Positions 29,055 through 30,044 of a DNA stretch of 49,995 nt are shown here, in pieces. The DNA is from a virus. Lineage: Duplodnaviria; Heunggongvirae; Uroviricota; Caudoviricetes. The DNA lies in IMG/VR virus record IMGVR_UViG_2721755643_000006, positions 1 through 49,995 of that record. One strand, given 5' to 3'. The notes under the pieces were generated by a model, which did no database searches, was not told where the DNA came from, and saw nothing but the letters and a program-made list of their open reading frames with translations. The number at the start of each line of letters is the position of its first letter. Within the stretch, counting starts at the first letter, position 1. A program made the translations under genes and the position numbers.

Positions 29055-29091
29055 ATCCCGCCCCCCGACAGACCTGTGCTATCGGAAAGAA

Positions 29092-29125
29092 AAAAGGCCA
29101 TCAGCAAAACTCTGATGGCCTGAAT
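29092..29125 (-). terminator. Rho-independent terminator just upstream of the lysis genes
   Basis: Minus-strand hairpin GGCCATCAG-AGTTTTG-CTGATGGCC followed by TTTTTTCTTTCC, ~40 bp upstream of the holin start. Confidence 0.6.
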
Positions 29126-29734
29126 CACCTTTACCAATATTGTATGAAAAAACACGCACGACTAATTGACAATAATTTTCATTTCCATTAAAAAAGATCG
29201 CGTAGCATTCTTAATTCATGAGGAACTTTACCCGCCAGCAATCTGAGTAGCGAAAGCTGTTCATCCCCAATGTTTTTGCTGGCGGGTCCTTTTTTCTACG
29301 GTCCTCCTCCCCGGAGGGGGGCATTTCATTATTTTTCTAATCGTTACTGGTGAGAAGGCGGAAGAAAAAGCCAGTTCTTCGCCCCTAAATAACAGCATGA
29401 TTCCAGTCCATGCAAAATCTGATTTCCAGCTCACACATACCGAGCGCTGTACAAAAAACCGCCAGCCAAGGCAGTTAAGAGTGTGTTCCCGGGGTTTGCT
29501 TAGAATATTTTGTAAGTTGTCCGAAGAGATATTTACAACACCAGAATGATGAATCATCAGTCCCCTGCCAGAGGTTCACTACGTAACCTGACCGACAATG
29601 CACCATTCTGGTGCTGAAAAAAGAGCACTGGAACTGCAACAAAACAACATCACAGAACAGGAGATGGTAAGGAGTCAGACATTCCCACACAATATTGTGT
29701 CAGTGCAAATAACAACCTTCGTCTCAAATCTCGC

Positions 29735-29809
29735 TGGAGCGGGCAGCGGGAATCGAACCCGCATCATCAGCTTGGAAGGCTGAGGTAATAGCCATTATAC
29801 GATGCCCGC
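29735..29809 (-). tRNA. tRNA-Gly (anticodon TCC)
   Basis: 75-nt cloverleaf drawn by hand: acceptor GCGGGCA/TGCCCGC, anticodon stem TCAGC/GCTGA, loop CTTCCAA, T-loop TTCGATT, CCA end; resembles T4-type tRNA-Gly. Confidence 0.75.
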
Positions 29810-29812
29810 ATA

Positions 29813-29888
29813 TGGTGCCGACTACCGGAATCGAACTGGTGACCTGATGATTACAAGTCAGTTGCTCTGCCTGCTGAGCTAAGTCGGC
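29813..29888 (-). tRNA. tRNA-like, probably Thr (anticodon TGT), weak anticodon stem
   Basis: Acceptor GCCGACT/AGTCGGC, D-arm GCTC...GAGC, T-loop TTCGATT, CCA end; anticodon loop CTTGTAA but stem ACTGA/TCATC has two mismatches. Confidence 0.55.
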
Positions 29889-29890
29889 GC

Positions 29891-29967
29891 TGGCCCACCA
29901 CCGAGGACTCGAACCTCGCACCGTCAACTTAGAAGGTTGATGCTCTATCCGGATGAGCTAGTGGTGG
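29891..29967 (-). tRNA. tRNA-Arg (anticodon TCT)
   Basis: 77-nt cloverleaf: anticodon stem TCAAC/GTTGA, loop CTTCTAA, T-arm CGAGG-TTCGAGT-CCTCG, CCA end. Confidence 0.75.
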
Positions 29968-29968
29968 T

Positions 29969-30044
29969 TGGTGGCCCTTGCTGGACTTGAACCAGCGACC
30001 TGGCGATTATGAGTCGCTCGCTCTCACCACTGAGCTAAAGGGCC
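29969..30044 (-). tRNA. tRNA with CAT anticodon, ileX/ileZ-like (Ile2 or Met)
   Basis: GGCCCTTTAGCTCAGTGGT.AGAGC...GACTCATAATCGC...GGTCGCTGGTTCAAGTCCAGCA.GGGCCACCA is nearly identical to E. coli tRNA-Ile2 as recalled. Confidence 0.8.

Follow-up and report, generated by a model that had tools for sequence, protein, structure and literature searches.

In this work, we analyzed a 49,995-nucleotide (nt) stretch of Caudoviricetes DNA (positions 1 to 49,995 of the IMG/VR virus record IMGVR_UViG_2721755643_000006; hereafter, the window), and in particular the interval separating a cluster of four tRNA genes from the holin gene. Far from being empty, this interval contains two conserved candidates for non-coding RNAs, named in no database: a long hairpin in the 3' trailer of tRNA-Gly, which represents the most solid new item, and a unit resembling a small RNA (sRNA) gene on the strand opposite to the late genes, which is plausible but unproven. 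The whole locus is probably a "moron" segment of the late operon of a lambdoid Escherichia coli prophage, made up of exchangeable cassettes and with its cargo slot unfilled. The initial annotation of this DNA had reported the tRNA cluster, a gap devoid of credible open reading frames (ORFs), two plus-strand hairpins, and a terminator, in the place where Shiga toxin (Stx) phages carry stx. All these features exist at or near the positions where it put them, and its description of a late-region tRNA cluster followed by a non-coding interval, an insulating terminator, and a vacant cargo position is broadly correct, this being an already known kind of arrangement. Since it is textbook lambdoid architecture for the Q-to-lysis interval to contain tRNAs and terminators and to receive cargo genes, reading the locus as one with a "missing toxin" is unremarkable.

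The 1.3 kb around the tRNA cluster and the gap match the chromosomes of four E. coli strains at 99.9-100% identity. Strains FDAARGOS_943, RMDEC364, and VL46 have exactly this locus. The full arrangement is present in 8 out of 5426 complete E. coli genomes, where PGAP (Prokaryotic Genome Annotation Pipeline) calls tRNA-Ile, tRNA-Arg, tRNA-Thr, and tRNA-Gly and leaves the gap unannotated. The gap extends from 29055 to 29734, between tRNA-Gly and the holin ATG (29054); it had been described as about 600 bp without a credible ORF, and it does contain only short, unconserved ORFs, but its length is 680 bp. According to BLAST searches against the E. coli genomes, it splits cleanly into two modules (Table 1): module A, which travels with the Thr-Gly tRNAs in other lambdoid prophages, and module B, which travels with the class II holin gene. 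In the relatives, the cargo found after module A includes a 180-aa protein, TerB, DUF3927, IraM, and the insertion sequences (IS) IS66 and IS3, and that found before module B comprises the pertussis-like AB5 toxin genes of PMV-1; the commonest state in the family is an ORF-free, non-coding spacer that measures 560-780 bp and leads directly to the lysis genes. The idea that the stx slot is empty here holds insofar as relatives harbor cargo between the same flanks; on the other hand, the gap is composed of two conserved non-coding modules with structured RNA. Probing the GenBank phage collection with the gap retrieved only five weak partial matches, which implies that module B is essentially absent from deposited phage genomes.

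The search for a conserved small ORF or a known RNA family in the gap did not retrieve either. A 37-aa ORF (29211-29324, minus strand) is frameshifted in GZM7, and the 63-aa ORF annotated by PGAP in the module B of GZM7 (WP_000502162.1) has in the window no start codon and an early stop due to a 1-nt indel. Moreover, the frames of the short gap ORFs cross terminator stems. Small proteins were ruled out on the grounds that neither start codons nor reading frames are conserved. The scan with the covariance models of Rfam 15, performed on 28800-30200 (E <= 5) and on the window at the gathering threshold, brought only the tRNAs above the threshold here and nothing for the gap, the best non-tRNA matches being at chance level (isrD, 15.9 bits, E = 4.8; plant microRNA models); probing 11 related loci (designated below by L numbers) gave no Rfam match on the hairpin or on module B.

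The hairpin of module A was modeled with RNAalifold on 35 distinct variants. The window copy folds at z = -3.6 with respect to shuffled sequences; the variants are related to each other, and shuffle statistics overstate their independence. Over the alignment, 97.6% of the 1120 cells are standard pairs, versus 33-59% when the partners are slid by one to three columns. One pair switches between AU (18 sequences) and GC (13), and sixteen pairs vary on one side only, via G.U. This conservation is strand-specific, with 231 G.U cells on the tRNA strand versus 3 on its complement, where pairing drops to 77.2%. The variants differ through indels of 1-5 nt, and the hairpin, of about 100 nt, is the sole block common to all the mosaic variants.

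The hairpin pattern matches 102 IMG/VR contigs; among the species-representative genomes, it was retrieved only from E. coli and Shigella flexneri, with no wider species distribution at that pattern stringency. A BLAST search found the hairpin in 151 of the 5426 complete E. coli genomes, always on the chromosome and almost always unannotated. In every contig with enough flanking sequence (more than 100), tRNA-Gly(tcc) starts 201-218 nt upstream of the hairpin, which lies about 130 nt after the end of the tRNA, while the companion tRNAs vary (Ile2-Arg-Thr-Gly, Ile2-"Lys"-Thr-Gly, Thr-Gly, and Arg-Gly). The hairpin is not followed by a U-run, and the terminator-like site T1 (Table 1) is located about 60 nt later. 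A nearly continuous helix of about 30 bp is a classic RNase III substrate, and the hairpin exceeds the roughly two helical turns (at least 20 bp) of mostly continuous double-stranded RNA expected of RNase III sites. By analogy with such sites, it is most likely a processing site where the tRNA precursor is cut away from the RNA that follows; it could alternatively give rise to a trailer-derived small RNA.

Two further observations concern the trailers. The last five bases of the 3' arm (A3 columns 101-120, approximately 29543-29520 in the window) can pair with bases lying 7-10 nt downstream (GGTG/CACC or GATG/CATC), forming a small hairpin that excludes the base of the long helix; 24 of the 35 variants have five pairs out of five, versus 33% in shuffles. 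As a covarying element this small hairpin was discarded, since its pattern can be explained by linkage in the downstream mosaic module and the hairpin is weak in the window variant; it could represent a switch or only that linkage. Furthermore, a second class of glyT trailers, found in L129, L132, L141, L151, and about 40 other loci, consists of GTTAGAGTCTTTCAGTC...GACTGAAAGAC followed by a T-run, and it too forms a long hairpin with apparent compensatory changes (GAGTCTTTCAGTC versus AAGCTTTTCGGTC).

Module B carries the candidate sRNA gene, on the plus strand and directed against the late operon. Its predicted product is about 95 nt long and ends with a 12-bp stem (29230-29241/29276-29287) enclosing a 34-nt loop and followed by a U-run at 29288-29296 (CCUUUUUUC); its fold has an energy of -33 kcal/mol and z = -3.6. 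The -35 hexamer, the stem, and the A/U run are invariant in five module B variants, including remnants without the holin gene. The 16-mer anchor GGGGATGAACAGCTTT, used to look for module B in IMG/VR, gave many chance matches and only five real sequence types, which do not suffice for testing covariation in the plus-strand stem.

A similar layout has been described in enteropathogenic E. coli (EPEC) E2348/69, whose prophages encode the Hfq-dependent sRNAs PasA and PasC, validated by Northern blot and located between an esterase gene and the class II holin gene in a "> < >" orientation (PMC8550237 Table S6; bioRxiv 10.64898/2026.05.13.724894). In prophage PP2 of E2348/69, an A-run and a GCCAGC stem are followed by the RNA body and by TTGACA, 17 nt, and TCAGAA, the last one 6 nt from the PasA 5' end; after the PasA promoter come a late-strand terminator and then the holin gene. 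The candidate of the window appears to be a positional and architectural analogue of PasA/PasC rather than a member of their family; family membership was rejected, neither pairwise alignment nor an nhmmer profile disclosing homology.

Module B also occurs at 643 plasmid places, the one inspected being a prophage remnant on a ColV-type virulence plasmid. In this copy (plasmid p102026_1, L004:4001-4469), module B lacks the holin and lysozyme genes and is followed by a match to the Rfam family STnc490, an Rz/Rz1 fragment, and iss; the sRNA-like unit is intact, and the terminator-like site T2 (Table 1) is mutated. In GZM7, module B follows the methylase gene and an STnc100 RNA, and a pap island remnant carries module B as well, as does strain ATCC 25922. 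The STnc100 sRNA, reported as PasD-related, fills in relatives (L006:3698-3886 and L009:5604-5779) the methylase-to-holin interval and, in GZM7, stands where the window has the tRNAs and module A. In S. flexneri and several E. coli contigs, module B is interrupted about 6 nt before the holin ATG by an insertion beginning with TGCCCCTATTAAGTTGTCAAGCAT (L112, L113, L176, L032, L043, L071, L087, L216, and L221); it has an ORF of transposase size (398 aa) just inside, and it is probably an IS element disrupting the lysis cassette.

The commonest alternative spacer between hairpin and holin gene (L023:6700+70 to +780; also L019 and L015) is rich in structure, with a stem GAGGCG...CGCCTC switching to GAGGTG...CACCTC and at least two motifs made up of an A-run plus a hairpin, would-be terminators of the opposite strand, which suggests further antisense small RNAs. 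On the lysis side, an 88-aa ORF (28090-28356, plus strand) lies between the DUF1327 and lysozyme genes, overlapping the 3' end of the 176-aa DUF1327 ORF; in GZM7, an opposite-strand hypothetical gene is annotated at the equivalent place (L006:4910-5182). Transcription from this ORF would run antisense through the holin gene toward the plus-strand terminator at 29230-29296.

A number of observations weigh against the overall interpretation proposed here. The support for the hairpin comes mostly from one-sided, wobble-compatible changes, with double changes in four pairs only; the first set of hairpins was collected with a degenerate two-arm pattern fixing most stem positions, and a scan anchored on the 3' end of tRNA-Gly, which took no account of the hairpin, contributed just a few additional members of greater divergence. 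About half of the phage-borne glyT copies have the other trailer class with a different long hairpin, so the hairpin is not required for phage tRNA-Gly. As for the opposite-strand unit, its -10 hexamer (TAAAAA) is weak, lacking the conserved final T, and one substitution of the ColV plasmid leaves the 29230-29287 stem paired on the late strand only. The initial annotation had counted two plus-strand structures made up of a hairpin and a T-run; both exist, but the one at 29301-29322 undergoes in the relatives C<->U changes opposite G that retain pairing on the late strand only. Local alignments of the candidate with PasA and PasC gave p = 0.03 and 0.016 against shuffles, that is, no detectable homology, and a profile of six PasA/PasC variants searched with nhmmer retrieved no match at the locus even at E <= 100, the IMG/VR variants of PasA/PasC being too uniform to bridge the gap to the candidate. 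Lastly, the tRNA-Thr of this lineage may be defective, as described below.

Different explanations of the same interval have to be considered. In principle, the gap might be inert sequence left behind by a lost toxin or cargo cassette, with the terminator before S as its sole functional element, and this was essentially the view of the initial annotation. The cargo genes held by relatives in the equivalent interval and the rarity of the exact arrangement in the complete genomes would fit; we nevertheless consider it improbable, given that both halves are conserved independently in many backgrounds, that the hairpin keeps its pairing through strand-specific wobble changes, that the module B -35, stem, and U-run are retained even in holin-less plasmid remnants, and that ORF-free spacers of this size range are the norm in the family. 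It is quite improbable, too, that the long inverted repeat acts as DNA, either as a recombination boundary promoting cassette exchange or as the remnant of a small mobile element. It does sit at a mosaic boundary, as the only block common to otherwise unrelated flanks, and variation in the downstream part of its 3' arm follows that of the downstream module; however, its distance from and orientation to tRNA-Gly are fixed, and the excess of G.U cells on the tRNA strand, with the loss of pairing on the opposite one, argues against such a role, because a cruciform or recombination site has no reason to keep pairing on one strand only.

Regarding module B, the plus-strand hairpin and U-run (29230-29296) might be a structural element of the late leader, or a stop for antisense transcription coming from the lysis side, for example, from the 28090-28356 ORF. 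The poor -10, the lack of detectable PasA/PasC homology, the single stem substitution and the neighboring 29301-29322 hairpin, both of which fit late-strand pairing, and the opposite-strand gene annotated in GZM7 between ydfR and the lysozyme gene all speak for this explanation. We regard it as doubtful, albeit a serious possibility, in that the perfect TTGACA with its 17-nt spacer is invariant in five variants, the equally invariant A6/U6 run is meaningful on the plus strand only, and layout and spacing match those of the validated PasA locus. That the gap encodes one or more small proteins is extremely improbable: PGAP does call the 63-aa protein in GZM7, the window has a 37-aa ORF, and a hypothetical protein overlapping the hairpin appears in the annotation of a few genomes, yet, in the window, the former ORF lacks a start and is interrupted by a 1-nt indel, the latter is frameshifted in GZM7, the hairpin variants carry 1-5-nt indels, and the ORFs cross terminator stems.

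The positions of the features discussed here are reported in Table 1.

Table 1. Features of the late region of the window, with their positions, strands, and supporting evidence.
Feature	Position	Strand	Evidence or description
Q antiterminator	32940-32545	-	Pfam PF06530
ORF6N protein	32276-31716	-	Pfam
pR'-qut-tR' homologue (late promoter, qut site, first terminator)	31614-31698	-	84.5% identity to 933W annotated features
N6/N4 DNA methylase	31143-30085	-	Pfam
pT-like tRNA promoter (putative)	30054-30082	-	-35 TTGCTG 30082-30077, 17-nt spacer, -10 TATCAT 30059-30054; aligned with 933W pT
tRNA-Ile2, anticodon CAT, ileZ type	29969-30044	-	ARAGORN; Rfam 71.2 bits
tRNA-Arg (UCU, reads AGA), argN-type scaffold	29891-29967	-	ARAGORN; Rfam 56.4 bits
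tRNA-Thr (UGU), host thrU copy	29813-29888	-	ARAGORN; Rfam 59.5 bits
tRNA-Gly (UCC)	29735-29809	-	ARAGORN; Rfam 64.9 bits
Module A, 3' trailer of tRNA-Gly	29452-29734	-	~70% identity to trailers in SerU-LTIIb (two copies), EC571, RM9088
Long imperfect RNA hairpin	29532-29620	-	28-bp helix plus 4-bp apical helix, asymmetric internal loop (RNAalifold, 35 variants)
Terminator-like site T1, predicted end of tRNA transcription unit	29452-29476	-	7-bp G+C-rich stem plus T6
Module A/B junction, 13 nt, vacant cargo slot	29439-29451		A homology stops at T1; B homology begins at ATGTGAGCTGG
Module B, non-coding 5' leader travelling with class II holin	29055-29438	-	84-89% identity, 1646/5426 E. coli genomes
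Small hairpin	29301-29322	-	Terminator-like scan; pyrimidine-rich 5' arm, GGAGGAGG 3' arm
Candidate sRNA gene against late operon	29166-29296	+	-35 TTGACA 29166-29171, 17-nt spacer, TAAAAA 29189-29194
Plus-strand hairpin	29230-29287	+	Followed by CCTTTTTTC
Terminator-like site T2, 36 nt before holin start codon	29090-29121	-	10-bp stem, 6 G-C pairs, then T6
Class II (P21 S type) holin, 71 aa, first lysis gene	28839-29054	-	Pfam PF04971, E = 1.5e-35

Terminator-like sites are frequent in this region: a consensus scan found seven in 28700-30300, versus 1.5 +/- 1.2 in shuffles. The T1 homologue, AACCGCC...GGCGG plus T8, is kept in most trailer variants. T2 is invariant in the three module B copies with the holin gene, and stem-breaking changes occur in the two holin-less remnants; unrelated spacers (those of L023 and of the L007/L015/L060 types) also place a strong terminator right before the first lysis gene. 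Hence, the strong minus-strand terminator claimed directly before S is present (29121-29090) and has equivalents even in relatives with unrelated spacers, and the role proposed for it, i.e., insulating the lysis genes, is supported both by its decay only where the holin gene has been lost and by these analogous terminators. T1 and T2, both of which have the stem and T-run of intrinsic terminators, would terminate transcription; in the presence of Q, they would be read through. A possible late-strand promoter before T2 (TTGTCA ... TACAAT) was discarded, its spacer being 22 nt long and its -10 unconserved in the relatives.

ARAGORN predicted exactly four tRNA genes in the whole window, all of them on the minus strand, and with the Rfam tRNA model their scores range from 56 to 71 bits (threshold 29); the four-tRNA cluster is thus accepted by both methods. 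The CAT tRNA is identical to 933W ileZ at 75 positions out of 76 and to K-12 ileX at 69 out of 76; a gene identical to it is called tRNA-Ile by PGAP in strain RMDEC364, and it would read AUA after lysidine modification. tRNA-Arg(tct) shares 61/77 positions with 933W argN, 58/77 with host argU, and 46/77 with argO, its anticodon being UCU versus UCG in 933W argN. No argO homologue was found in the cluster, the best match (56/77) being to the Thr gene. Consequently, of the "ileZ/argO-type" genes initially proposed, the first is confirmed, but the Arg gene is built on the argN scaffold and not on that of argO. The Gly and Thr genes had been considered T4-like; instead, they are copies of host genes, the former identical to K-12 glyT (75/75) and the latter matching thrU at 72 positions out of 76, and this identity ruled out a T4-like origin, with no direct comparison with T4 sequences. 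Two of the four changes in the Thr gene (GT->TC, on the 3' strand of the stem) break the anticodon stem, and the alignment to the Rfam model places two non-canonical pairs at its top, in agreement with the mispaired stem noticed at first. Most related prophages keep the intact thrU anticodon stem, which makes the broken one a recent trait of this lineage.

In 41 ORFs of the window, the frequencies of the AUA, AGA, ACA, and GGA codons are 7.2, 6.6, 13.6, and 12.5 per thousand, respectively. These frequencies exceed the host average of E. coli codon tables, and they are compatible with the usual codon-supplement role of phage tRNAs. The scaffold of the second tRNA gene of the cluster (L010, L012, L014, L015, and others, along with L245:2706-2782 and L108) has a varying anticodon, which is UCU (Arg) here and UCG in 933W argN; in 14 contigs, it is UUU, the gene being called Lys and having C instead of U at position 33, and degenerate "Phe(aaa)" and "Val(aac)" versions also occur. 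This diversity looks like the remodeling or decay of one phage tRNA gene. Moreover, the "tRNA-Arg" of the LT-IIb prophage (L007:1122-1194) is a thrU-derived scaffold with anticodon TCT instead of TGT. We found no literature on the Thr-Gly prophage tRNA cluster or its trailer.

As the initial annotation had stated, the cluster lies on the late strand upstream of the holin gene; its location between Q/pR' and S corresponds to that of the cluster in the Stx2 phage 933W. The DUF1327/YdfR, lysozyme, and Rz genes, recognized with Pfam, are on the same strand as the holin gene. In the 933W record, the order is Q, pR', qut, terminators, the putative tRNA promoter pT, ileZ-argN-argO, a terminator, stx2AB, an esterase gene (nanS-p), and S; the alignment with this Q-S interval revealed that the analogy with Stx phages is sound for position, ileZ, and promoters. 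In the window, pR' itself lies at approximately 31698-31672, and the late transcription that must cross the tRNA/gap region would start at this homologue. The pT-like sequence ends 9 nt ahead of tRNA-Ile2, and both hexamer regions are conserved with respect to 933W; its promoter activity is predicted from this likeness, pT being "putative" in the 933W record as well. A 3' remnant of the methylase gene, non-coding and homologous to window positions 30085-30195, is located in 933W just upstream of pT (L245:2460-2580).

Other RNA families were retrieved outside the gap. Rfam matches to isrK (70.8 bits) and to the C4 antisense RNA (60.3 bits) lie at 32323-32504 on the minus strand; they begin 41 nt past the Q stop codon, and the ORF6N-domain gene (31716-32276, minus strand) comes next. 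This block of about 850 bp separates Q from pR'-qut, and its insertion places the late promoter about 850 bp downstream of Q; we take its layout to recall the isrK/anrP module of Gifsy-1 and the c4-ant module of P1. A second pair, composed of isrK (63.7 bits) and C4 (71.3 bits), is located at 44858-45043 on the plus strand, about 12 kb from the first. Lastly, a match to the sok antitoxin RNA (116.9 bits; 34956-35130, minus strand) implies a hok/sok-type toxin-antitoxin locus in the prophage early region; the sok family is also present in the related loci L019 and L023.

On the whole, we can depict the following scenario. Late transcription would start from the 933W-type pR', and Q-modified polymerase would be needed to proceed past tR', T1, and T2 to the holin, endolysin, and spanin genes. 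In the lysogen, the pT-type promoter might drive the four tRNAs, reading AUA, AGA, ACA, and GGA, in a transcript that would carry a trailer of about 285 nt and halt at T1. By analogy with known processing sites, an RNase III cut at the hairpin would free the tRNA precursor, in the lysogen from its trailer and upon Q read-through from the lysis mRNA; a 3' fragment with T1 at its end might persist as an RNA of its own. The opposite-strand RNA of module B, of about 95 nt, would be fully complementary to the late leader and may also act in trans via Hfq, and T2 would represent the last barrier keeping unmodified polymerase from the holin gene.

A further, speculative step, which we deem rather unlikely, would be that hairpin, trailer, and T1 together constitute an undescribed class of tRNA-linked regulatory RNA and that module B defines a new family of holin-proximal antisense sRNAs unrelated in sequence to PasA/PasC. 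In one version, the trailer would be processed by RNase III and its 3' half would survive as an Hfq-binding sRNA or sponge; in another, the long helix and the small overlapping 3' hairpin would form a switch coupling tRNA release to lysis-gene expression. Were this true, the module B family would have representatives in about 30% of E. coli genomes, also as plasmid copies next to iss such as that of the ColV-type plasmid inspected.

Even apart from this, roughly one E. coli genome out of three harbors the sRNA-like unit of module B, which also persists in prophage remnants, one of them beside iss. If expressed, the hairpin and this unit would extend the set of prophage sRNAs known to cluster in the Q-to-S interval (PasA/C/D, STnc100, and the EcOnc RNAs), and they would offer a simple system for studying how phage tRNA transcripts are separated from the mRNA of the lethal lysis genes.

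As regards known systems, the regulatory RNA 3'ETS-leuZ (ETS, external transcribed spacer) is released from the 3' trailer of the glyW-cysT-leuZ tRNA operon. It is listed among sRNAs, as "3'ESTleuZ", in PMC8550237 Table S2. Like it, the module A trailer belongs to a tRNA operon, ends in a predicted intrinsic terminator, and could persist as a separate RNA; unlike it, it is much longer (about 285 nt) and is dominated by the 32-bp hairpin. The hairpin also recalls the E. coli RNase III site located between the metY tRNA and the downstream mRNA, according to Regnier and Grunberg-Manago (1989) as cited in PMC5371410; the metY-rimP-nusA-infB transcript, as presented there, shares with the window a long double-stranded RNA element placed between a tRNA and a downstream mRNA in one transcript. 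The two sites have no sequence relation, and, in the lysogen, the window hairpin would precede a terminator and not directly a coding sequence.

The candidate of module B and PasA/PasC (with their enterohemorrhagic E. coli (EHEC) homologues EcOnc51/52) share the location in a non-coding interval directly upstream of the class II holin gene, antisense to the late genes, a length of about 80-95 nt, a G+C stem containing GCCAGC followed by a U-run, a TTGACA with 17 nt, and a late-strand terminator between the sRNA promoter and the holin gene. In contrast, the RNA predicted in the window has a longer terminator stem and a 34-nt loop, and its upstream neighbor is a tRNA trailer instead of an esterase gene.

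Among toxin-carrying prophages, that of E. coli PMV-1, which harbors an EcPlt/ArtAB-like AB5 toxin, shows module B and the same holin cassette immediately downstream of the toxin genes, and SerU-LTIIb, the LT-IIb prophage, contains the Thr-Gly tRNAs together with the trailer hairpin in two copies. The window differs from both of them in having no toxin genes; furthermore, in SerU-LTIIb, the LT-IIb genes follow the endolysin gene and are not placed between the tRNAs and the holin gene. Compared with 933W, the stx and esterase genes are missing from the window, the argO position is held by the copies of host thrU and glyT, the methylase gene between pR' and pT is intact whereas 933W has only its 3' remnant, the isrK-C4-ORF6N block lies between Q and pR', and the long trailer hairpin is without a counterpart in 933W. 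On the other hand, the order and strand of the elements are the same in the two phages, which share a homologous Q (75% nucleotide identity), pR'-qut-tR', pT, ileZ, and the argN scaffold, as well as a terminator after the tRNAs followed by a holin gene of the same family (74% nucleotide identity).

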